A DNA stretch of 64,000 nt, taken from the sequence record PV420835.1. One strand, given 5' to 3'. This DNA comes from Acinetobacter phage phiAB441. A model generated the notes under the pieces. It saw only the letters and a list, made by a program, of their open reading frames with translations, searched no databases and was not told where the DNA came from. Below, piece after piece: positions 8,335 to 38,885 of the stretch (position 1 is the stretch's first letter; every line of letters begins with the position of its first letter). A program made the position numbers and the translations under genes.

Positions 8335-8462
8335 TCAATAATCTTACGAATCCAGAAAGTCACTTTTTCTGTGTAACTTGTATAGGTAATTACAAATAAG
8401 TATAAAAATGCAATTGTAAAAGCTAACAATATAAACATAACAACCTCAAAGTGTAGATGCAC
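8280..8462 (-). CDS. Small membrane protein (2 TM)
   Basis: ORF track. Strongly hydrophobic. Confidence 0.35.
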   Translation of the reverse strand: MHLHFEVVMFILLAFTIAFLYLFVITYTSYTEKVTFWIRKIIDCILALLFTYLIYLETLS

Positions 8463-8787
8463 TAACTAAGTATTTACCTTTCTCACCAAACATGTCATCA
8501 ACTACAGCTTGTGCAAAACGATAATCTTTAGCTTTAATAAATACACGATTACCAAAAGCATTTTTAATGTGATACTTGTACTTAGGAAACTTATTGTTTC
8601 TAGGAGCGTGACAACTAATAAAAACAACTTTCTTTTTACCTTCATACTCAAATGTATATTGAGATACTCCACCGTTCACAAGAATTCTTTCATCAAATAT
8701 TACAACTTCCTTTTTTTCTTTCTTCTTAACCACCTTCAAGTCTTGTTTCTTTGATGCTTTCAATAAGGCTTGTAACATTGCAGTCAT
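8446..8787 (-). CDS. Hypothetical basic protein
   Basis: ORF track. Lys-rich N-terminus. Confidence 0.5.
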   Translation of the reverse strand: MTAMLQALLKASKKQDLKVVKKKEKKEVVIFDERILVNGGVSQYTFEYEGKKKVVFISCHAPRNNKFPKYKYHIKNAFGNRVFIKAKDYRFAQAVVDDMFGEKGKYLVSASTL

Positions 8788-8891
8788 TTAAATCTCCAGA
8801 TAACACTATGTGTTTTACATTAAACATTTCTACAGACAATAATAAAGCGACACTCAACTAATGTCAAGTGTCGCTTATGATAAATTTGTAA

Positions 8892-9437
8892 TTATTGTGT
8901 ATTGTATTTTTCTTCTAATTGCTTCCATGCGTCCTGCAAAGTAGACACGGACTGTCTGAGCTTATCCCCATCCTCTGCCATGTCGAGATATCGTTCTGTG
9001 CAGCTTCCAAACGACTCTTGTAACCATTGTAAGTCTCGCCTTGATACACTGACGGAGCTTTCGGAATTACCACTTTGATCGGTACTACTCCCACTTCCGA
9101 CTTTATTGATTTGTTCGCGCAACCGCTTAACATCAGTATTGAGATTGTTCCTAGAAACAGTAATTTTATCGATTTCACTTTGATGTTTCTCCTGTAAAAT
9201 TGTATACTCTTTATTTAATTCATTAAGTTTCTTAATTGAATTATTTTGCTCTTCAATCAGTTTGGAAGTCATATCATTTTTAAGAGAAACATAAGCTACA
9301 TCTTTATCAACTAGCTTTTTCTCATATTTATTTTTAAGACTTTCATTCTGCATTAACAAACCAAGTAATCCAATAAATAAAATAACGATTAAGAATTCCT
9401 TCCAAAATCTAATAATATAAGAAATAGCTAGTGTCAT
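8892..9437 (-). CDS. i-spanin (Rz-like): N-terminal TM anchor plus periplasmic coiled coil
   Basis: N-terminal hydrophobic helix FLIVILFIGLLGLLM, then heptad-rich segment. A lipoprotein ORF is embedded in its C-terminal half in another frame. Confidence 0.55.
   Translation of the reverse strand: MTLAISYIIRFWKEFLIVILFIGLLGLLMQNESLKNKYEKKLVDKDVAYVSLKNDMTSKLIEEQNNSIKKLNELNKEYTILQEKHQSEIDKITVSRNNLNTDVKRLREQINKVGSGSSTDQSGNSESSVSVSRRDLQWLQESFGSCTERYLDMAEDGDKLRQSVSTLQDAWKQLEEKYNTQ
8915..9178 (-). CDS. o-spanin (Rz1-like) outer-membrane lipoprotein, embedded in the +1 frame within the i-spanin gene
   Basis: Signal peptide plus lipobox LSGC. Pro-rich mature part. Entirely inside 8892..9437. Confidence 0.5.
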   Translation of the reverse strand: MKSIKLLFLGTISILMLSGCANKSIKSEVGVVPIKVVIPKAPSVYQGETYNGYKSRLEAAQNDISTWQRMGISSDSPCLLCRTHGSN

Positions 9438-9438
9438 A

Positions 9439-10119
9439 TTACTTCTTCCGTTTCTTAAGTTCGTTTTGAATCATCTTCACATCTTCTTTGTATAAGGATA
9501 ATTCATTTTCAAGTTCTTCATCTGTGTATTGTGACATATCGAGAGGTTTATCCAATTCACTCATACGCGCTTCAATACGAGTATTTTCACGTTTTTGTAA
9601 ACGCTCACGAATCTCAAAATCCTCTAAGTATATCTCTTTTCCAGCGATAACACTTTGAATTTCTTCTTCTGTCAGGAAGTCCTTGTATGTCTCTTTGATA
9701 AATCTTTCGTTCACTTTCTTATTGTGTTCTGCACGAGTCACAATCTTATGTGCATCATCATAACCAGTGCCACAAATCATATTATGAATCATTAAACAAG
9801 AATCATCATGAACCTGATAACTATGAGCATCTTCCAAAAATAATGCACCACCAGCACTCGCAGCCATACCAAGAAGATTCATGTGAATGTTTGCTTGTGT
9901 TGATCTGATAGCGTTTCTTAAAGCAATTAAACTGTATAAACTTCCACCATCTGAGTTGATGTTGAACACAATGTGATCATCTGGACTAGATATACTTAAT
10001 ATATGAATGACCTCATCAAACGTGTATGCATCTCCAAAAACTTGACTGACATTTACTGTGTAATTTACACCATTACAAGGTGTAGCAAAAATTGCTGGGT
10101 ATTTATTTTCTTCTTGCAT
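9439..10119 (-). CDS. ClpP-like serine protease with C-terminal coiled-coil extension
   Basis: Motifs NSDGGS, GMAASAG (Ser) and LMIHN (His) match ClpP/S14 catalytic positions. Its stop abuts the i-spanin start. Confidence 0.6.
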   Translation of the reverse strand: MQEENKYPAIFATPCNGVNYTVNVSQVFGDAYTFDEVIHILSISSPDDHIVFNINSDGGSLYSLIALRNAIRSTQANIHMNLLGMAASAGGALFLEDAHSYQVHDDSCLMIHNMICGTGYDDAHKIVTRAEHNKKVNERFIKETYKDFLTEEEIQSVIAGKEIYLEDFEIRERLQKRENTRIEARMSELDKPLDMSQYTDEELENELSLYKEDVKMIQNELKKRKK

Positions 10120-10127
10120 ATCATCTC

Positions 10128-10313
10128 CTATAATTTTCGTGGTGGCAGTTTGATTTCTAAACCAATATCAGGACGCATGTGACGAATCTTGAAGCCCATC
10201 TTCTGAACCTTTCGTAAAGCAGCATCTTCTGTTTCTGCTGAAACACGAAGCTCACCTTCGATGTCATCAGTGTACACGGTAAAGATTGTTCGTTTGTTTG
10301 GTTTATATCCCAT
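10128..10313 (-). CDS. Hypothetical small protein
   Basis: ORF track. Confidence 0.45.
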   Translation of the reverse strand: MGYKPNKRTIFTVYTDDIEGELRVSAETEDAALRKVQKMGFKIRHMRPDIGLEIKLPPRKL

Positions 10314-10564
10314 TACTCCTCCAAATCTTCTTCTAAAATTACAAAATAACTTTCACCTTCAAGTCGATTAAAACTATCAAGAAAATCATTTAACTCATCA
10401 ACATATGCCCAATACGTTTCTGCACAATCACGATTATCTAAAATTTCTTTTTCAAGAGCATCAATTTTCTTAAAGACCTCTGAATACTCCTGATAAGGAA
10501 TCAGATATGTATGACCATTATCATCTTCATATGTTGCATAAATTTTATTTGGATTAATGTTCAT
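10313..10564 (-). CDS. Hypothetical acidic protein
   Basis: ORF track. Confidence 0.5.
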   Translation of the reverse strand: MNINPNKIYATYEDDNGHTYLIPYQEYSEVFKKIDALEKEILDNRDCAETYWAYVDELNDFLDSFNRLEGESYFVILEEDLEE

Positions 10565-11343
10565 TACATCAAACCTTCTTTAGTGAAAACTTTAATCCAT
10601 TCACGACACTCTTTACTACGAACAATATCACCAATTTCATCAAAGTTAATCAACCCCATAGTCTCTTGAAGTTTTGCATATTTAGAATACAAATCAATAG
10701 CAACCTTTAATCCACTATCGTGTTTTAATGCACTTTGACGAACATCACCTTCAATAACAAGAGTACACCCATTCTGACGTGTGAGCAAACTCATAATTTC
10801 TTCAACCGTACAATCTTCAGCTTCGGTAACAATTACAGCAGTTGTATCATCAAAGCTTCGACCCTTAACAGTTTCCATAGGAACGAACTCAATATCACCA
10901 TTCTCAATTGCTAATAAGGTTGCTGCACGACCAATGCGTTTAAATAAAACATCAATAACTGGAGCCAACCAAACAGAGGATTTCTGTTCGATCGTTCCAG
11001 CGAAATAACCTAAAGATTTACTATTTGACACAGCAGGACGAACAAGAACAAGTTTCTTAATTCTTCCAGTTCTGTACCAATCAGCAAATGTTGCAGTTGG
11101 AATATAGGTTTTAGATGTTCCAGCATAACCAGTTGCTAAAATACAGCGTTTATCTTCAAGAAGTTCCATATACTTACGTTGCTTTGGATTCATAGGCAAG
11201 ATTGGATTATTCTTTACAAACTCATCTCGCTCTTGCTTATGTTTTTCACTTAAATACTGTTGTTTCTCACCAATTTCTTGTCTGTAACTTCGATTAGAAA
11301 CACCACGACCATCTTGTAATTGTCTATTACGAGCTTTACCCAA
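10564..11343 (-). CDS. phoH: PhoH-like ATPase
   Basis: Walker A ATGYAGTSKTY and overall PhoH-family layout, by established knowledge of the family. Confidence 0.75.
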   Translation of the reverse strand: MGKARNRQLQDGRGVSNRSYRQEIGEKQQYLSEKHKQERDEFVKNNPILPMNPKQRKYMELLEDKRCILATGYAGTSKTYIPTATFADWYRTGRIKKLVLVRPAVSNSKSLGYFAGTIEQKSSVWLAPVIDVLFKRIGRAATLLAIENGDIEFVPMETVKGRSFDDTTAVIVTEAEDCTVEEIMSLLTRQNGCTLVIEGDVRQSALKHDSGLKVAIDLYSKYAKLQETMGLINFDEIGDIVRSKECREWIKVFTKEGLM

Positions 11344-11367
11344 ATCATCTCTCCTTAATGTTAGGAA

Positions 11368-11538
11368 TTATTTATTAATAATTTCACTTGGAATAATAAA
11401 ACTTGTTTTACCTTCCACACTACATAAAAACTTAATAAACAAACTCTGTTCTTTTTTAGAAAGTTTCTTTAAAGTCTCAATCTTCGATTCATTTGTACTT
11501 TTAAGATTATTTGCATTCACTAAATTAATTTCTGACAT
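11368..11538 (-). CDS. Small hypothetical protein (about 56 aa). Not in ORF track.
   Basis: Minus-strand ATG at 11538 preceded by ggag with 6-nt spacing. Open to a taa. Confidence 0.35.
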   Translation of the reverse strand: MSEINLVNANNLKSTNESKIETLKKLSKKEQSLFIKFLCSVEGKTSFIIPSEIINK

Positions 11539-12072: not shown

Positions 12073-12321
12073 GCAAGGACAGGGTTGGGTTGGATATGTT
12101 ATTATGAGTGAAACGAAATAATAATACATTAATGTCAATCTTTAGATTGCTACAATATATTGAATGAGTGAAACGAATGAAATATATTGGGATATAAGAA
12201 TAATATTATAAATATAACACTATAGAATATAACACTTACAATATACTATATGTTTTCTATGCGTAGCATAATATATTATATAATAATATTGTAAAATAAT
12301 ACTTTGGAGAATTAAAAGAAT

Positions 12322-13418: not shown

Positions 13419-13781
13419 TTGAACGAAGCTATTCTATGTTTAGCAATTGCAATATTCAACGAAAGTCGTGGTGAACCAATTAAAGGTCAATATGCTGTAG
13501 CTGAAGTTATTCATAACCGAAGTAGGCATGATGATTTTCCTAAAGGGTATTGTGATGTCGTTAAACAACGAGGTCAGTTTTCTTGGTATAAAAGCTCAAA
13601 AGATTTAAAACCACCTAAGCACGATAAGGATGCTTGGAATGATAGCGTGAAAGTCGCTAACTCCTTTTACACCAATAAAACAAATTATACGAAAGGCGCA
13701 TTATACTTTAATTCTAGTAGATTAGGTGTTCGCTTTAATAAACAATTAAAATGTAAAATTGGAAAGCATGTTTTCTTTTGA
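13419..13781 (+). CDS. SleB-like cell-wall hydrolase (Hydrolase_2 family)
   Basis: N-terminal motif ESRGEPIKGQYAVAEVIHNRS...QRGQFSW matches the SleB/Hydrolase_2 signature, by established knowledge. Confidence 0.65.
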   Translation: MNEAILCLAIAIFNESRGEPIKGQYAVAEVIHNRSRHDDFPKGYCDVVKQRGQFSWYKSSKDLKPPKHDKDAWNDSVKVANSFYTNKTNYTKGALYFNSSRLGVRFNKQLKCKIGKHVFF

Positions 13782-14174: not shown

Positions 14175-15977
14175 TTGAGCGCACAATTCAGACCAACCTC
14201 AAAACGACAAGAGTTATTCCTTGCATCAAACAGTTTTCTAACTATATTTGGTGGTGCAGCATCAGGTGGTAAATCGTATACAGGATTAATGAGATTCTTA
14301 AACTACGTTCATGACCCTAACTTTGTTGGTTATGTGTTCCGACAAATTGGTGCGGACATTAAAAAAGAAGGTGGTCTTTTCTGGACTGCTGTTAAGATGT
14401 TTCAGCAATATGATCCTGATGTAACTTACACAACCCAACCGATGGTTATTAAGTTTCCTCATCCTGATCCAGCTAAAAGAAAAAGAAAAGTTAAAGGTGC
14501 AACAATATCATTTACTGGTCTTGATGATCAAGATGGCATGAATGCAATTCAAGGTATTAACATTTCTGCTGCAATGGTGGATGAAGCAACACAAATTGGT
14601 GAAGAAGAATTCTGGTGGTTAATCACTCGTCTTCGTACCGAAGCTAATATGACTCCCAACCTATGGTTAACCTGTAACCCTGATGATCAATCTTTTGTAT
14701 TAAGACAATTTGTACATTGGTGGTTATATCCACGTGGTACTATTGCTGATATTGTCTCAACCAATATCTACGAAAAAGACCTAAAACATATTCAAGTTAA
14801 TGATCGTGTCTTTATTGAATTATACGAAGACGGTGAGTTACTTAAGACTTATGAAACTGGTGGTCATATTACACTTTCTGACAACATCCAATTCTTTAGT
14901 GTTGCTGGAAGTTTATCTGTCCATCGTGGATATGTTGAGAATGGTGTTAGATTGTTTACATCAATTCCAAGATTAACAGAAAATCAAGTAGCTTTTTTAG
15001 TATTAAAAAGAAAAGGGAATGAAGTCTTTAAATCTGAGATGGTTGTTGATGGTCAAGAAGATGTTGGTGGAAGACCAGACATTGAGAAGAATGGTAAACA
15101 ACTTTATTATTTAAACGTTGAGAATAAAGTTCACCTTGCAACATCACTTGATGAGTTGTACAAAGAACTTCCAGAATACAAAGGGCACCCAACAATTGTT
15201 CCAGATACAGTAAGTTTCATCGGAGCAACGTGTAAAGACAACCCAACATATCTTCTTAAAAACCCTGCTTATGAATCTAAACTTCAAAACCAACCGAGAT
15301 TAAAAAGAGAACAACTCTATTATGGTAACTGGTATGCGAAGGAAGAAGGTGCTGGTTACTTCCGAAGAGAGTGGTTATTTGAACCACTAAAACAACCTTT
15401 TCCAGAAGATCAAATTCAATCTCGTGTTCGTTGTTTTGACTTAGCATCTACCGAACCAACAGAAGCAAATCCAAATCCCGACTGGACAGTTGGAGTTTTG
15501 ATTGCTAAAACAAAATCAGGTCTCTATGTAATTGAAGATATGGTTCGATTTAGAAAACGTGCTGGTGAAGTTGAACAATTAATAATTGATATTGTTGAAA
15601 AAGATGTTGACTTATATGGCAGTGATAAATACAAAGGATATCTTCCGATAGACCCTGGGTCTGCTGGAAAAACATCTAAGATTTATTATGCAAAGTTATT
15701 TGCTGAACGTAAAGTTCCAATTAGATTCATTAAAGTTGGTACAAAGAATTCTAAGATGAAACGATTTGAACCATTTTCTGCATCTTCAGAAAACGAATTG
15801 GTTCGTATTGTTAAAGGTGATTGGAATGATGAATTCTTTTATGAGCTAGAAGCATTCGGTGGGAACAATAAGAATGTCCACGATGATATCGTGGACTCGG
15901 TGAGTGACGGATTTAATGTTCTAGCAACTAAGAAAGAACTACCAAAAATTAATGCAAAATTATTAAAAATGTCGTAA
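14175..15977 (+). CDS. terL: Terminase large subunit
   Basis: Walker A GGAASGGKSY and Walker B MVDEAT. Size and position fit. TTG start after taggagg RBS. Confidence 0.9.
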   Translation: MSAQFRPTSKRQELFLASNSFLTIFGGAASGGKSYTGLMRFLNYVHDPNFVGYVFRQIGADIKKEGGLFWTAVKMFQQYDPDVTYTTQPMVIKFPHPDPAKRKRKVKGATISFTGLDDQDGMNAIQGINISAAMVDEATQIGEEEFWWLITRLRTEANMTPNLWLTCNPDDQSFVLRQFVHWWLYPRGTIADIVSTNIYEKDLKHIQVNDRVFIELYEDGELLKTYETGGHITLSDNIQFFSVAGSLSVHRGYVENGVRLFTSIPRLTENQVAFLVLKRKGNEVFKSEMVVDGQEDVGGRPDIEKNGKQLYYLNVENKVHLATSLDELYKELPEYKGHPTIVPDTVSFIGATCKDNPTYLLKNPAYESKLQNQPRLKREQLYYGNWYAKEEGAGYFRREWLFEPLKQPFPEDQIQSRVRCFDLASTEPTEANPNPDWTVGVLIAKTKSGLYVIEDMVRFRKRAGEVEQLIIDIVEKDVDLYGSDKYKGYLPIDPGSAGKTSKIYYAKLFAERKVPIRFIKVGTKNSKMKRFEPFSASSENELVRIVKGDWNDEFFYELEAFGGNNKNVHDDIVDSVSDGFNVLATKKELPKINAKLLKMS

Positions 15978-15986
15978 GAGGGAGAC

Positions 15987-17465
15987 ATGGCAACAACAAG
16001 AAAGAAAAAAGAACCTGTCTTACCTAAAGAGATCGGAACAACAGATAGTGGTCGTTTTGATCCAATGCGATTAGATAGACGTGGCGGTTTACCAAGAGAA
16101 CTTGTATTTCCTCATAGTATTTACACTTATGATGAGATGGCAAAAAACCCTACAATTGCAGCAGCTTTAAATGCTATCTCATTAATTGCTTTACGTGTAC
16201 CACGTTATATTGAACCTTATGATGGCTCAGTTACTCACAAGAAGAGAGCAGAATTTCTTAATGAGTGTTTAGGTGTTACAACCCCTTCAAACGACATGAC
16301 TCATACATTTGATGATTTCATTCGTGAAACTCTATCAATGAATAAATATGGCTTCTGTATCACAGAGAAAGTGTTCCGTGTTAGACGTTTGAAGAATGGT
16401 AGTAAATATGATGATGGTAAAGTTGGTATTAAAAGATTACCAATTCGACCTCAATATTCTATTGAAGATTTTGTATACGATGAAGAAGGTCGTGATTTAC
16501 TAGCAATCAAACAAGCTGTCAATACAAAGAACTTTAAGAAATCTGCTTTATCTTCATTGATTGATGGAAATCTAAAAGTAATTCCTAGAGAAAGCTTCAT
16601 GCTATTTAACGCAGAAGCGACAAATGGTAGCGCTATTAGTATTTCACCTTTAGCTCATGTTTATGAAGTTTGGTCAGAATTAATTAAATATAAAGACCTT
16701 GAGAACATCGCATCATCTAAAAACTTAAACGGTTTACCTGTTCTGTGGATGCCTGCTGAAAACATGGTTGATGATCCAGAAGACCCAGCAAGTGAAGTGT
16801 TTAAAGTATTACGAGATGGTATTAGTAAGATTTCAGTTGGTCAACAAACATCATTAATGCTTCCAAGTGATCGTGAACAAGATTCTGGTGCTGGTGGCAA
16901 GCTTTATGACTTCCAGTTAATGTCTGCATCATCTTCAAACATTACAGCTATTCAGCAAACAATCAAACGGCTTACTGATGAGATTCTTCAATGTTTATCT
17001 GCCGACTGGTTGAAAGATGGTAATGAGATTGATACTGCCAAGACATCTTTAATGATCATGTTAGTTGAGGGAAGAATTAGAGAAATCTTCACTCGTTTAA
17101 ATACCGACCTTATTCCTCATTTGTGGAGATTGAATGGTTGGGATGATACAAAGCTTCCTCAGATTAAATATGGAACATTGAAAGAAGTCAGTATGGCAGA
17201 TTTTGCGAAAGCTATGCAACAACTTAAAGCTACTAAACTAGTTGCTGTCACTCCTAAGAACATTAACTACATTGCTGAGAAGACAGGTTTACCTGAACGT
17301 CTAGATGAGAATTTAACTCAAGATGAATTAAATAAGATTTTAGGCGTGGAAGATTCTGACGACAGTCGATCAGGGGATGGATTAGCAAAAGGAAATGCTG
17401 GAAATGGTACAGCAGATGAAGTTGCTAGTGATGATCGTAGTGCTGCAAACCTAGATAATAAATAA
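15987..17465 (+). CDS. Portal protein
   Basis: 492 aa directly downstream of terL and upstream of the prohead protease. Synteny only. Confidence 0.7.
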   Translation: MATTRKKKEPVLPKEIGTTDSGRFDPMRLDRRGGLPRELVFPHSIYTYDEMAKNPTIAAALNAISLIALRVPRYIEPYDGSVTHKKRAEFLNECLGVTTPSNDMTHTFDDFIRETLSMNKYGFCITEKVFRVRRLKNGSKYDDGKVGIKRLPIRPQYSIEDFVYDEEGRDLLAIKQAVNTKNFKKSALSSLIDGNLKVIPRESFMLFNAEATNGSAISISPLAHVYEVWSELIKYKDLENIASSKNLNGLPVLWMPAENMVDDPEDPASEVFKVLRDGISKISVGQQTSLMLPSDREQDSGAGGKLYDFQLMSASSSNITAIQQTIKRLTDEILQCLSADWLKDGNEIDTAKTSLMIMLVEGRIREIFTRLNTDLIPHLWRLNGWDDTKLPQIKYGTLKEVSMADFAKAMQQLKATKLVAVTPKNINYIAEKTGLPERLDENLTQDELNKILGVEDSDDSRSGDGLAKGNAGNGTADEVASDDRSAANLDNK

Positions 17466-17474
17466 GGAGACTTA

Positions 17475-18920
17475 ATGGCTAAGTACAAAAGAGGGAGTTT
17501 GGCGTTAGCTAGACAAGTCTTTAACACCCCTCAATTAATTGTAGAATCTGATCTACAACGAATCTCTCAATACCTAGTAGATCGTGCAAACGGTGTTGAA
17601 GTCAACGTTATTAATACAAATGATGTTGAGCAAAAAACAGAAAAACAAGAATTACAGTCTCTTCTTGAATTAGCATCTTACGAGACAGAAGAAGAAAAAC
17701 AACGTTATCATCGTAGATTAAATATTACTAATGATGGTAAACGAGGTAATCTTTTCATTGAAGGTGCTTTAGTTGCGAAAGCTGGTGAGATCGATGCTGA
17801 TTGCATGGAGTTAACTTCCTATGAAAAGCTTCTATCAACTTTCCAGATGCAAGTCAAGGAAGGTGTTGAAGAATTAGTTCTACATGTAGACTCAGGCGGT
17901 GGCGCTGCTGCAACGTGTTTTGAGATGGCTAACGAAGTCAAGACTCTAGCTAATGAGAATAATATCAAGATTTATGCTTACATTGACGGAATGGCAGCTA
18001 GTGCAGCTTACGCTTGGACATCTATTGCAGATGAGATTATATCTCGACCAGATAGTGAAGCAGGCTCTATTGGTGTAGTTGTGCAACTTATCAATAATTC
18101 AAAAATGCTTTCTGATATTGGTATTACAAGAAAATTTATTACTTACGGTGATAATAAAGTTCCTTTCGATGATCAAGGAGAGTTTACAGATAAATTCTTA
18201 GAATCGATTCAGAAGAAGGTTAATAAAACAGGTTTAGAATTTAGCAATTTTGTTGCTAAAAACCGAAACATGAATGTTGAAGATGTAATTGCGCTACAAG
18301 CAGAAATCTTTACTTCAGAAGATGCTTTGTCTTTAGGTTTGGTTGATAAGATCATGACTCGCTCAGAGTTTTTTGATAAGTATCTTCCATCAGCCAAAGC
18401 TAGTTCAAATAATCAATATTATTTACAACAAGAGGACATTATGTCAAAAGAAAAAGATGTAACTGTTGACACACAATTGAGTGTTGAGCAATTACAAGAA
18501 CAATTAACAAACTTAAATGTAGAAAAAGAACAACTAACAACTCAAGTTGAAACATTAACTCAACAATTAGTCGACTTTCAATCTACAAAAGAACAGTTAC
18601 AAACACTACAGGCAAATTATGATGCTTTGTTAGGTGAAAAAGAAGCTTCAGATAAAGCTGCTAAATTAGCAACTCGTAAAGCAGCAATTGAAGATGCTAT
18701 TGGTAAAGATAATGAACAAGTAGCTTCTCTATTATCTTCTACTGAACAATTAGAAGATGCAGCTTTTGATATCATTGTTCAAAGCTTATCTACACAACAA
18801 GAGTTAAAGCAAGAAAAATTAAAAGAGAAAGGTAACGAAGGAACTCAAAGTCCATCACAACTTAGTATTGAAGAACAACTTGCTGCAACAGCAAAAAAAA
18901 TGACAAAGCAGTCTGCTTAA
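17475..18920 (+). CDS. Prohead protease (S49/ClpP-like) fused to a scaffold-like C-terminal coiled coil
   Basis: HVDSGGG and DGMAASAAY serine-protease motifs. C-terminal 160 aa are Q/E/L-rich heptads. Confidence 0.75.
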   Translation: MAKYKRGSLALARQVFNTPQLIVESDLQRISQYLVDRANGVEVNVINTNDVEQKTEKQELQSLLELASYETEEEKQRYHRRLNITNDGKRGNLFIEGALVAKAGEIDADCMELTSYEKLLSTFQMQVKEGVEELVLHVDSGGGAAATCFEMANEVKTLANENNIKIYAYIDGMAASAAYAWTSIADEIISRPDSEAGSIGVVVQLINNSKMLSDIGITRKFITYGDNKVPFDDQGEFTDKFLESIQKKVNKTGLEFSNFVAKNRNMNVEDVIALQAEIFTSEDALSLGLVDKIMTRSEFFDKYLPSAKASSNNQYYLQQEDIMSKEKDVTVDTQLSVEQLQEQLTNLNVEKEQLTTQVETLTQQLVDFQSTKEQLQTLQANYDALLGEKEASDKAAKLATRKAAIEDAIGKDNEQVASLLSSTEQLEDAAFDIIVQSLSTQQELKQEKLKEKGNEGTQSPSQLSIEEQLAATAKKMTKQSA

Positions 18921-19439: not shown

Positions 19440-20516
19440 ATGGCATTAGCTCGTAACCCTATTAACCCTAATACTACGATTGATCTTGGTTCGGTATTAA
19501 AGGTCATTAATCCGCAGTATGGTCGTATTGATCAATCAGGCTTATTTGAAGAACAAGGTATCCTTGCAACAACTCACATGTATAAAGTTGTTGATCAAGG
19601 TGTAACAAAAATGACTAAGCTCACTTCTCGTACAGAACGTGATGCAATGGCAGTTGAAAAACCAAAAGAAAAGTTCGTTACTATGGGTAGCGTAACTATT
19701 AAAGAAACTGGTGGTGTTCACGTTGAAGACTTAATTGGTGTTGTTTCAGATGTCATCAACTTTGAATCTGAATCGTTCCAAGAAGCTTTAGTGAAAGAAG
19801 CTACTCGTTTAGCAAACGTTGGTGCAGCCAACATGGAATATGTTAAGCTTACTGCTACTCAAGGTCGTGTACTTGACCCGTATAACGGTAATGTAGCGAT
19901 TGACCAATATGCTAACACTGGTACTACTCGTACAGCAGTTACTATTAACGCTGCTCCTACAGCAGATTTAATTGGGCAATTAACAGCTTTACGTAACCAA
20001 TTAGCTGTATTAAATGGTTATAATGGTAATATCTCTGAAGTTGAAATCATTCTTGGTGAAACAGCTTTCAATGATGTTGTTAACCATCCTGACTTTGCTA
20101 CACTTTACCAATTAGCATTCACTGGTTTAGGTAATCTTGCATTACAACAACCAGTTCTTAACGGTAGTCTTGGTTTACAACAAAAAGGTCAATTTGGTTT
20201 CTCTCGTGAATTCCGTTGGGAAAACCTTGTGTTCCGCACTTACCCACAAAAGTTCTATCGTTGGAACGGTGTAGCAGTTGATGCTGTTGCAGCTAACAAA
20301 GGTTGGACAATTGTTCATGGTGTATCTGGTCTTTACCAAGTTAAATATGTACCAGCACCTTACGTATCACGTTATAACCAAGTTGGTCAAAAATGGGTAG
20401 CTCGTTCTACTGGTATCATTGACGATACTCACGCAGATATTACTCTCGAATCTCACTTGATTCCGTTTATGCAACGTCCTGAAATGTCTCTTGACATCAC
20501 TGTGACTACAGCGTAA
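19440..20516 (+). CDS. Major capsid protein (HK97-fold expected)
   Basis: 358 aa right after protease-scaffold and decoration genes. Weak stem-loop follows at 20526. Synteny-based. Confidence 0.6.
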   Translation: MALARNPINPNTTIDLGSVLKVINPQYGRIDQSGLFEEQGILATTHMYKVVDQGVTKMTKLTSRTERDAMAVEKPKEKFVTMGSVTIKETGGVHVEDLIGVVSDVINFESESFQEALVKEATRLANVGAANMEYVKLTATQGRVLDPYNGNVAIDQYANTGTTRTAVTINAAPTADLIGQLTALRNQLAVLNGYNGNISEVEIILGETAFNDVVNHPDFATLYQLAFTGLGNLALQQPVLNGSLGLQQKGQFGFSREFRWENLVFRTYPQKFYRWNGVAVDAVAANKGWTIVHGVSGLYQVKYVPAPYVSRYNQVGQKWVARSTGIIDDTHADITLESHLIPFMQRPEMSLDITVTTA

Positions 20517-37592: not shown

Positions 37593-37991
37593 GTGGAAGG
37601 CACAAGCACCACATCTATTATAGGTCTACTAAAGTTTTTGTACCCTTCCTTAATCGGAAGTGCTTTAGCAGTATGGTATAAAAGAAATGATGTAAAATGG
37701 AAGGAGAAAACTTTAGGTGAGAAAATATTTTATAGTGTAGTAGGTATTGGTGCAATTGTTGTTGGTGTCTCTATCGGCTTAGCACTTGGAAATGCTCTTA
37801 TTATCTACTTTGGACTTGTTGAATATTGGTACTGCTTTGGTGTTTATATGTTCTCAAGTCTATCATCACTAAAACTATTAGATGCTGTTGTAAAAAATAG
37901 TGATGAAATACTATCAACTGTTTTTTCTGGTGTCAAGGATGTCGTAAAAACCTTCTTTGATACCTTGACATCTAGGTGGAAAAATAAATGA
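37593..37991 (+). CDS. Putative holin (3 TM)
   Basis: Hydrophobic helices. Position directly upstream of the endolysin. Confidence 0.5.
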   Translation: MEGTSTTSIIGLLKFLYPSLIGSALAVWYKRNDVKWKEKTLGEKIFYSVVGIGAIVVGVSIGLALGNALIIYFGLVEYWYCFGVYMFSSLSSLKLLDAVVKNSDEILSTVFSGVKDVVKTFFDTLTSRWKNK

Positions 37992-38299
37992 TTATTTATA
38001 TCGCTCTAATACAACTACTCCTTTTAATTAATACAATTATAATTTTCATATGTGAACATAGTCCACTTTGGGCTAACACATGGAAAAGTATACTCATTCG
38101 ATTCATTGTAGCAATCATCCTTTTAGTAATTGGTAACTATGTTCCATTACTTACCTTGTTACCTTATTGGATTACATTTGCTGCTTTCTTCTTATCAATT
38201 GTAACCACTGCAATGCTTATCAAATATGTAATGGTTGAATACTTTGAACGTGTAAGAAGAGTTTCAAGATTAAGGAGAAGAAAAAGAAATGAAGATTAA
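37988..38299 (+). CDS. Membrane protein with highly basic C-terminus (holin or antiholin candidate)
   Basis: 3 TM helices and an RVRRVSRLRRRKRNED tail. Overlaps the start of the endolysin. Confidence 0.45.
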   Translation: MIIYIALIQLLLLINTIIIFICEHSPLWANTWKSILIRFIVAIILLVIGNYVPLLTLLPYWITFAAFFLSIVTTAMLIKYVMVEYFERVRRVSRLRRRKRNED

Positions 38300-38885
38300 T
38301 TTTGACAAAATTAGAAATTCACTATTTGGTGGAAAATTAAAACAAACACAAGTTGATGGTATCAACTCCATTCTAGAATCAATAAATAAACATGGTATTT
38401 CGAAAGAACAGGCTGCATATGTTTTTGCTACTGTTTATCACGAAACAGCTAGAACCATGCAACCAATTGAAGAATACGGTAAAGGTAAAGGTAGACCATA
38501 CGGCACTTGGTATAAGAATTCTAAAGGTGAGTTATTTTCTTGGAAAAATGGCAATAAGAATACAGCTTACTTATACAAAGATTATCCACACCTTTACTAT
38601 GGACGCTCATTTCCACAATTAACATGGTTTGATAACTACGAAAAAGCTGGAAAGATTCTTGGTGTTGATTTTCTAAGAAATCCTTCATTAGTTATGGATT
38701 TAAAATACGCATCTGAAATCCTAGTTGTAGGGATGATGGATGGATGGTTTACACACAAGAAATTATCAGATTATATTAATCATTCTAAAAAAGATTATTA
38801 CAACGCAAGAAGAATTATAAACTCAACAGATAGAGCAGCATTGATTGCTGAGTATGCTTCTGAGTTTGAAGACGCATTATTTTAA
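38289..38885 (+). CDS. Endolysin, glycoside hydrolase family 19 (chitinase-like lysozyme), no cell-wall-binding domain
   Basis: YHETA...GRSFPQLTW..NY motif resembles GH19 catalytic core. Position after the holins. Confidence 0.65.
   Translation: MKINFDKIRNSLFGGKLKQTQVDGINSILESINKHGISKEQAAYVFATVYHETARTMQPIEEYGKGKGRPYGTWYKNSKGELFSWKNGNKNTAYLYKDYPHLYYGRSFPQLTWFDNYEKAGKILGVDFLRNPSLVMDLKYASEILVVGMMDGWFTHKKLSDYINHSKKDYYNARRIINSTDRAALIAEYASEFEDALF

Follow-up and report, generated by a model that had tools for sequence, protein, structure and literature searches.

A probable embedded Rz/Rz1-type spanin pair next to a ClpP-like protease gene in an Acinetobacter phage

We analysed 64,000 nucleotides (nt) of Acinetobacter phage phiAB441 (PV420835.1), hereafter the window, which on sequence grounds is part of a ~93-kb B9/TaPaz-like myovirus of A. 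baumannii, and we describe here a minus-strand locus that encodes a predicted spanin next to a ClpP-like protease. We consider it probable that the locus holds an embedded spanin, made up of an inner-membrane protein (i-spanin, Rz-like) together with a lipoprotein of the outer membrane (o-spanin, Rz1-like) read from two frames of the same DNA, that the protease works independently of it, and that the adjacency of the two is a matter of gene order. The original prediction for this DNA had proposed an Rz/Rz1-type pair of this kind, and the proposal is borne out by the architecture of the two genes, by a match of the i-spanin to a spanin family, and by the retention of the lipoprotein frame in related phages. 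In megablast, positions 8400..11400 of the window matched seven Acinetobacter phage records at 91-95% nt identity, including MD-2021a, vB_AbaM_B9, TaPaz, Ab3, Ab5 and Ab7; BS46 and Phab24 are more distant relatives (56% identity, tblastn with the Rz-like protein as query). The annotations of eight GenBank relatives were inspected, and the adjacency of protease and spanin was surveyed in 5 other genera and 29 IMG/VR loci.

The i-spanin gene occupies 8892..9437 (minus strand) and encodes 181 amino acids (aa), arranged as an N-terminal transmembrane domain, a long helix, a linker and a second helix. Its sole hydrophobic segment reaches a Kyte-Doolittle maximum of 2.19 at aa 11-29 (19-residue window); the transmembrane domain, approximately aa 14-30, is encoded by 9348..9398 (minus strand), and residues R10 and K13 lie on its N-terminal, cytoplasmic side, as in a protein of type II topology. 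The AlphaFold 2 model contains a continuous helix from residue 2 to 114, an unstructured stretch at 115-132 and a helix at 133-179, with predicted local distance difference test (pLDDT) values below 50 at 117-127. The linker (aa 115-132, GSGSSTDQSGNSESSVSV) is rich in Ser and Gly, and the DNA that encodes it (9042..9095, minus strand) specifies in the other frame the conserved o-spanin core SEVGVVPIKVVIPKAPSVY. The protein matches phrog_312 ('Rz-like spanin', 2.7e-10) and has one periplasmic Cys, Cys146, which 90% or more of 14 homologues retain; the presence of one or more periplasmic Cys able to form homotypic disulfide bonds is a criterion used to recognise spanins (Kongari 2018, PMC6139136). 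Orthologues occur at the same place after the ClpP-like gene in TaPaz (TaPaz_38, MZ043613, 93% identity) and BS46 (BS46_gp08, MN276049, 56%), where they are already annotated as 'putative Rz lysis protein', and the gene is annotated as hypothetical in B9, Ab3, Ab5, Phab24 and MD-2021a.

The o-spanin gene lies wholly within the Rz gene in the +1 frame (8915..9178, minus strand) and encodes 87 aa from a GTG start, with an AGGAG resembling a Shine-Dalgarno (SD) sequence ~10 nt upstream. The N-terminus, MKSIKLLFLGTISILMLSGC/ANK (the slash marks the cleavage site), comprises a predicted signal peptide of aa 1-19, read as MKSIK / LLFLGTISILM / LSG, followed by the lipidation Cys; the codons of the lipobox LSGC are at 9119..9130 (minus strand), those of Cys20 itself at 9119..9121. 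The +2 residue is Ala and not Asp, which under rule-based sorting points to the outer membrane, and the mature protein of 67 aa contains Cys78 and Cys81. In a six-frame scan of the 64 kb (a start codon, a basic N-region, an uncharged hydrophobic core and a lipobox, with 25 or more codons to follow), 8915..9178 was the only open reading frame (ORF) with a lipoprotein signal, and no second spanin or lipoprotein was found near the endolysin in any frame of the window. The o-spanin gene lacks an annotation in all eight GenBank relatives. A membrane-anchored helical protein with a lipoprotein ORF embedded in another frame is what the original prediction had described, down to the lipobox LSGC, and these elements were all recovered; the proline richness it attributed to the lipoprotein was overstated, as the mature protein has 4 Pro in 67 residues, 3 of them in VVPIKVVIPKAPSVY.

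Both frames are open, and the lipobox is kept, in 11 close relatives in which Rz identity ranges from 56 to 98%, and the start position of the embedded frame is constant among close relatives as well. The lipobox reads LSGC in TaPaz, B9, MD-2021a, Ab3, Ab5 and three metagenomic contigs, LIAC in BS46 and LSAC in Phab24, the variants across all relatives being LSGC, LIAC, LSAC, MLGC, QTGC and TTAC; the Cys residues of BS46-type Rz1 stand at other positions. Between B9-type and BS46-type proteins, Rz identity is 45% inside the overlap and 66% outside it, and the mature Rz1 proteins are 52% identical with a near-fixed core, SEVGVVP[IL]KVVIPK[AP]P[ST]VY. Within the overlap, conservation of the lipoprotein frame equals or exceeds that of the Rz frame. 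The conserved Rz1 core overlies the Ser/Gly-rich Rz linker left unstructured by AlphaFold, and the Rz frame is here a low-complexity linker, free to vary; a conserved o-spanin part over the i-spanin linker has been described for lambda-type embedded spanins (PMC6139136). Farther away, four metagenomic phages of 95-99 kb (L012, L015, L020 and L021), with Rz only 22-26% identical to that of the window, each have an embedded lipoprotein ORF bearing a (V)VPIP...P.VY motif. Architecture and conservation are the main support for the spanin call, and most spanins have been identified in this way (PMC6139136).

The pair resembles lambda Rz/Rz1 (Summer et al. 2007; Kongari et al. 2018, PMC6139136) in having the o-spanin wholly in the +1 frame of the i-spanin, an i-spanin composed of an N-terminal transmembrane domain, a helix, a linker and a second helix, an o-spanin with a lipobox and no Asp at +2 that overlaps the i-spanin linker, and periplasmic Cys in both products. 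In contrast, it is only marginally similar to the lambda pair in sequence (Pfam scores below cut-off), and its place is not in the holin-endolysin cassette, from which it is 28 kb distant and on the opposite strand, but at the end of a PhoH/ClpP-like unit. Mature lambda Rz1 has 40 aa and a penta-proline run, whereas the 67-aa mature o-spanin of the window has a short PxxxxPxxP motif and a C-terminal half that is probably helical. The T4 spanins PseT.3/PseT.2 are likewise unlinked to the holin t and the endolysin e (PMC6139136), as in our case in a large virulent myovirus, and the T4 o-spanin is also larger than lambda Rz1, with a predicted C-terminal helix; however, the T4 spanin genes are separated, whereas those of the window are embedded.

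Immediately upstream of Rz, 9439..10119 (minus strand) encodes a protein of 226 aa with the fold of a ClpP serine protease. It carries the motifs NSDGGS (aa 55-60), GMAASAG (84-90) and MIHN (110-113), matches PF00574 (2.6e-11, 44.2 bits against a gathering cut-off of 20.2, over profile positions 37-143 of 182 only) and phrog_1827 ('ATP-dependent protease', 1.4e-40), and was modelled as a monomer by AlphaFold 2 from 51 homologues with a pLDDT of 90.3. Bacterial ClpP structures were the top Foldseek matches in the PDB (S. aureus ClpP: E-value 2e-10, template modelling score 0.70-0.75, root-mean-square deviation 2.3 Å over 157 residues), and no match to peptidase S49 (PF01343) was obtained at E-values up to 0.1. 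A ClpP-like protease with these motifs, its stop beside the spanin start, had been predicted here, and the fold, the motifs and a gap of 1 nt all agree with this. Ser88 and His112 are invariant in the 51 homologues, of which 44 have Glu and 5 have Asp at position 162; in the alignment with Coxiella ClpP (3q7h), this position falls on the catalytic Asp (Asp171 in E. coli numbering). The invariance of Ser88 and His112 and the acidic position 162 therefore predict an active enzyme. Two extra C-terminal helices are modelled at 167-190 and 200-225, where the original prediction had placed a coiled coil; what is predicted is two helices, whose pairing as a coiled coil is putative. In the homologue alignment, the conserved C-terminal tail comprises aa 186-226 (...LDKPLDMSQYTDEELENELSLYKEDVKMIQNELKKRKK; 9442..9564, minus strand). 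Neither a signal peptide nor a transmembrane domain was detected in the protease by hydropathy, and it is predicted to be cytoplasmic.

With bacterial ClpP (MEROPS S14), the protease shares the fold, the GxAAS and MIH motifs and an acidic third residue at the catalytic Asp position. However, it is only 17-24% identical to bacterial ClpP over structural alignments, most of its family has Glu instead of Asp, ~60 helical residues are added at its C-terminus, and its N-terminal segment differs, the first ~35 residues having no ClpP alignment and being modelled as a beta-hairpin. Its scores fall far below the cut-offs of the ClpP models TIGR00493 (25.6 against 308.6 bits), NF001368 (34.4 against 249) and NF009205 (39 against 228). 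The best NCBIfam model is NF045542, 'head maturation protease, ClpP-related' (9e-14, 51.7 bits, below the cut-off of 120), and several PHROG head maturation protease families also match, phrog_1684 among them (3e-27). Judging from these profile scores and the model, the protease has a ClpP fold but is no ClpP equivalog.

The protease and Rz genes meet at TAATATG, where the protease stop codon TAA (9441..9439) is followed after one base by the Rz ATG at 9437, and the last protease codons supply a purine-rich SD-like sequence for Rz. From this geometry, translational coupling of the two genes is plausible. The arrangement is looser in some metagenomic relatives, the genes abutting in L015 and L021 and being separated by 7 nt in L012 and by ~316 nt in L020. 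Sixteen nt past the Rz stop, a consensus scan found a hairpin resembling an intrinsic terminator (8845..8876, minus strand), with a 14-bp stem and a T-rich tail; its predicted RNA fold has a free energy of -20.2 kcal/mol (z-score -5.7, 0 of 200 shuffles as good), and the B9 and Phab24 records annotate terminators at the equivalent position. The same hairpin region (8839..8876, minus strand) holds a near-consensus sigma70-like promoter, TTGACA-17-TATTAT, with the -35 element in the stem and the -10 element in the T-tract, so that termination of one unit would overlap initiation of the next. Upstream of the protease lies a gene for a PhoH-like ATPase (10564..11343, minus strand; PF02562, 3e-39), and farther upstream, in a divergent intergenic region, the consensus scan gave a candidate sigma70-like promoter (TTTACA-16-TATTAT, 12268..12295, minus strand). 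The scan detected no minus-strand promoter- or terminator-like sites between 12268 and 8876; therefore one unit may comprise PhoH, two small ORFs, the protease and Rz/Rz1, and Rz/Rz1 would be its last cistron, directly before the terminator.

Relatives of the protease, whose family has long been annotated, were found by tblastn in at least 503 phage records, which include phages of Pseudomonas, Vibrio (ICP1), Rheinheimera, Salmonella, Cronobacter and Erwinia. PhoH adjoins the protease gene or sits a few genes from it in Otagovirus M5.1, ICP1, Seunavirus GAP31, Vibrio phage 11895-B1 and Rheinheimera phage Barba18A, and this proximity recurs in Vequintavirinae; the other neighbours in these genera are replication, ligase, ribonucleotide reductase and methylase genes, not head genes. 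These PhoH-linked ClpP-like genes of the phrog_1827 family (Otagovirus, ICP1, Vequintavirinae, Pakpunavirus, Barba) are homologous to that of the window and occur, like it, in non-structural regions of myoviruses of 80-150 kb that have a separate head protease. In contrast to the window, no spanin-like ORF follows the protease in the loci of Otagovirus, ICP1, Pakpunavirus, Vequintavirinae, Vibrio phage 11895-B1 and Barba18A. Among the loci inspected, a spanin after the protease occurs only in the Acinetobacter-phage clade and in L012, L015, L020 and L021, and the ...ELKKRKK tail is limited to this clade and a few metagenomic relatives. As a separate observation, wall-degrading genes recur near the PhoH-to-ClpP-like block in other genera: an endolysin gene is immediately upstream of PhoH in GAP31 (L008 1..939), and a baseplate hub/tail lysozyme gene in ICP1 (L006 1..1547).

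Three IMG/VR loci, L022, L023 and L024, have a protease of the same subfamily and no Rz/Rz1 after it (L022 3711..4782; L023 3702..3888; L024 3600..3780). In L023 and L024, the protease (46-57% identity) directly precedes a homologue of window 8446..8787, which encodes a 113-aa product of phrog_3948, and in L022 a methylase-like gene stands between the two. The spanin pair is thus an insertion or deletion between two conserved genes. An obligate pairing of protease and spanin is rejected by these three loci and by the other genera inspected, which have no spanin beside the protease, and the adjacency is most likely inherited gene order in one clade rather than a functional link.

The catalytic body of the protease (9552/9680..10119) is a cassette that has been swapped between phages otherwise more than 90% identical. 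DNA homology to the window ends inside the protease gene at 9551-9678 and resumes at the start codon or farther upstream, which puts the breakpoints at aa 147-189 and at the start codon (loci L001-L004, L009-L011, L013, L014 and L017). At least four protease types, 35-50% identical to one another (window/MD-2021a/BS46, TaPaz/Phab24, B9/Ab3 and Ab5/Ab7), precede the same C-terminal tail and Rz, and Ser and His are kept in every type. Together with Rz, the 3' end that the protease genes share may act as an arm for homologous recombination through which the catalytic body is frequently replaced. Exchange is not peculiar to the protease: the PhoH body (10565..11300) is mosaic too, with no DNA match in TaPaz, Ab3, Ab5, L013 and L014, its alleles assort independently of those of the protease (B9 and Ab3 share a protease type, not a PhoH type), and DNA polymerase swapping has been published for BS46 and Phab24 (PMC11348598). 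Protease swapping is therefore part of the general mosaicism of this phage group. The spanin gene has its own mosaics, as three Rz homologues (P0160-P0162) combine the N-terminus and transmembrane domain of the BS46 type with a periplasmic domain of the B9 type, and recombination has therefore occurred inside the spanin gene itself.

Some observations weigh against an embedded spanin standing beside an independent protease. The Rz protein scores 18.1 bits against Pfam Phage_lysis (PF03245), under the cut-off of 25.4, and the o-spanin match to LysC (PF23793, E-value 0.055) is not significant, so that homology to characterised spanins is weak; an NCBIfam search returned no spanin family match for Rz or Rz1, only coiled-coil noise. 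The lipoprotein and topology calls are rule-based, derived from hydropathy and motif rules, and the transcription unit from PhoH to Rz/Rz1 is predicted from consensus scans. The 1-nt junction and the protease tail are kept in 11 of 11 close relatives, which is compatible with some coupling of expression. If the embedded ORF were a chance, unexpressed frame, with Rz acting alone or with a lipoprotein from elsewhere, its GTG start, the ~10-nt distance to the AGGAG and the insignificant LysC match would all fit. We regard this as extremely improbable, as no other ORF in the window carries a lipoprotein signal, the frame, start, lipobox and SEVGVVP-KVVIPK-P-VY core of the embedded ORF are kept where Rz identity has fallen to 56%, an equivalent ORF is found in Rz genes only 22-26% identical, and the Rz frame over the core is the one free to vary. 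The conserved junction with its SD-like sequence in the protease 3' end bears instead on whether protease and spanin constitute a functional module, with translation coupled at a fixed ratio and the protease controlling lysis by degrading an inhibitor or through timing. Their adjacency persists in L012, L015 and L021 despite an Rz at 22-26% identity, and the protease tail is co-inherited with Rz while the catalytic body is exchanged. Such a module nevertheless seems to us very unlikely: the protease is predicted to be cytoplasmic and the working parts of the spanin periplasmic, L022-L024 and other genera carry the protease without a spanin beside it, the spacing varies from 7 nt in L012 to ~316 nt in L020, and catalytic bodies only 35-50% identical before near-identical Rz proteins argue against co-adaptation. 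An elaboration, in which an exchangeable catalytic head engaged in an arms race with host targets or defences is joined to a fixed docking tail (...EELE-E...ELKKRKK) and the junction ties protease dosage to lysis, is a long shot; if true, the fixed tail would dock the protease to a conserved phage or host partner.

Independence of the spanin leaves more than one role for the protease, and the literature offers annotation-level mentions of phage ClpP-like proteases and one general suggestion, our search having found no experimental paper on their function. In that suggestion, by Iyer et al., patchily distributed phage ClpP proteins act against host proteins (PMC7824862). It would agree with a ClpP-like protein that replaces or joins host ClpP as the core for ClpX/ClpA and redirects ATP-dependent proteolysis, as would the ClpP fold including the long handle helix, the full Ser-His-acid triad and a PF00574 score above the gathering threshold. 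We think this unlikely, given that all ClpP equivalog and subfamily models score far under their cut-offs (TIGR00493, for instance), that the PF00574 match is restricted to positions 37-143 of 182, that the model has a beta-hairpin in the ~35 N-terminal residues, the part that in ClpP makes up the axial loops and helix A, used with the ATPases, and that the best NCBIfam match is to an ATP-independent family, the ClpP-related head maturation protease. The latter match and that to phrog_1684, with the conserved helical C-terminal tail ending in KKRKK, could in turn point to a second virion-assembly or packaged protease, directed to procapsids by its helical, basic tail. The head-protease reading is unsupported by genomic position and score cut-offs, and we find it decidedly improbable: 51.7 bits is short of the 120 needed, the gene is found in every lineage among PhoH, ligase, ribonucleotide reductase or other early genes, on the strand opposite the head module, that module already has a protease of its own, the S49 protease-scaffold encoded between the portal and the major capsid protein, and the literature search found no virion proteomics for the protease family. 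An independent protease that degrades particular host or phage proteins during infection is the role we consider most likely, its family travelling with PhoH in replication or early regions.

For the spanin, we propose a mechanism by analogy with lambda Rz/Rz1. The 181-aa Rz would be a type II inner-membrane protein with a helical periplasmic domain that spans the periplasm, and the 87-aa Rz1 would undergo export, receive its lipid at Cys20 and then be sorted to the outer membrane; their C-termini would bind, forming a bridge threaded through the peptidoglycan. Once the holin candidates and the GH19 endolysin have destroyed the wall, the spanin complexes would fuse the inner and outer membranes and so finish lysis. 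These distant partners are encoded at 37593..38885 (plus strand), where hydropathy and profile searches identified two membrane proteins and a GH19 endolysin that lacks a signal sequence. The membrane proteins (37593..38299, plus strand) have 132 aa with 2 predicted transmembrane domains and 103 aa with 3, had no Pfam or NCBIfam match and matched only PHROGs of unknown function; by position, they are holin or antiholin candidates. The cassette is on the opposite strand from the spanin and ~28 kb away, exactly as had been noted for this DNA. The other ClpP-fold peptidase noted there, an S49 prohead protease/scaffold at 17475..18920, is likewise present (PF01343, 4e-27; phrog_53, 2e-73), in a head module with the portal at 15987..17465 and the major capsid protein at 19440..20516.

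Some further features of the window and its relatives were recorded. A second peptidoglycan hydrolase besides the GH19 endolysin, a SleB-type cell wall hydrolase of 120 aa without a transmembrane domain, is encoded at 13419..13781 (plus strand; PF07486, 4e-21), and a 128-aa ORF and the large terminase gene follow closely. The large terminase (14175..15977, plus strand) has 600 aa, against ~848 aa (2547 nt) for the TaPaz orthologue, reported with an intein, so that phiAB441 appears to have a terminase without this intein. A tRNA scan of the 64-kb window gave no match. A 14.8-kb contig labelled Salmonella enterica (Third Party Annotation, TPA) encodes a ClpP-like protein (P0004) and an Rz (P0154) that are 83% and 92% identical, respectively, to those of the window locus, and is probably contaminant or misassigned.

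Part of this picture was already known, namely the i-spanin name in TaPaz and BS46, the scattering of lysis genes through the genome, stated by the authors of TaPaz (PMC8228797), and the distance of the spanin from holin and endolysin in T4. The survey of Kongari et al. also listed 196 unannotated o-spanins (PMC6139136). The observation holds but is an ordinary one, and the wider significance that the original prediction implied is unsupported. The new elements are few: an o-spanin gene has been recognised and found to be conserved, the protease is no bona fide ClpP, and the position of the spanin is clade-specific. A complete spanin is thereby located for the B9/TaPaz/BS46 group, which are therapeutic-candidate A. 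baumannii phages, and the o-spanin gene missing from 8 of the 8 GenBank records examined is supplied. The name 'ATP-dependent Clp protease proteolytic subunit' claims more for the phage protease than is known; for the PhoH-linked family to which it belongs, the window contributes a neighbour peculiar to one clade and evidence that alleles are swapped, rather than a mechanism.

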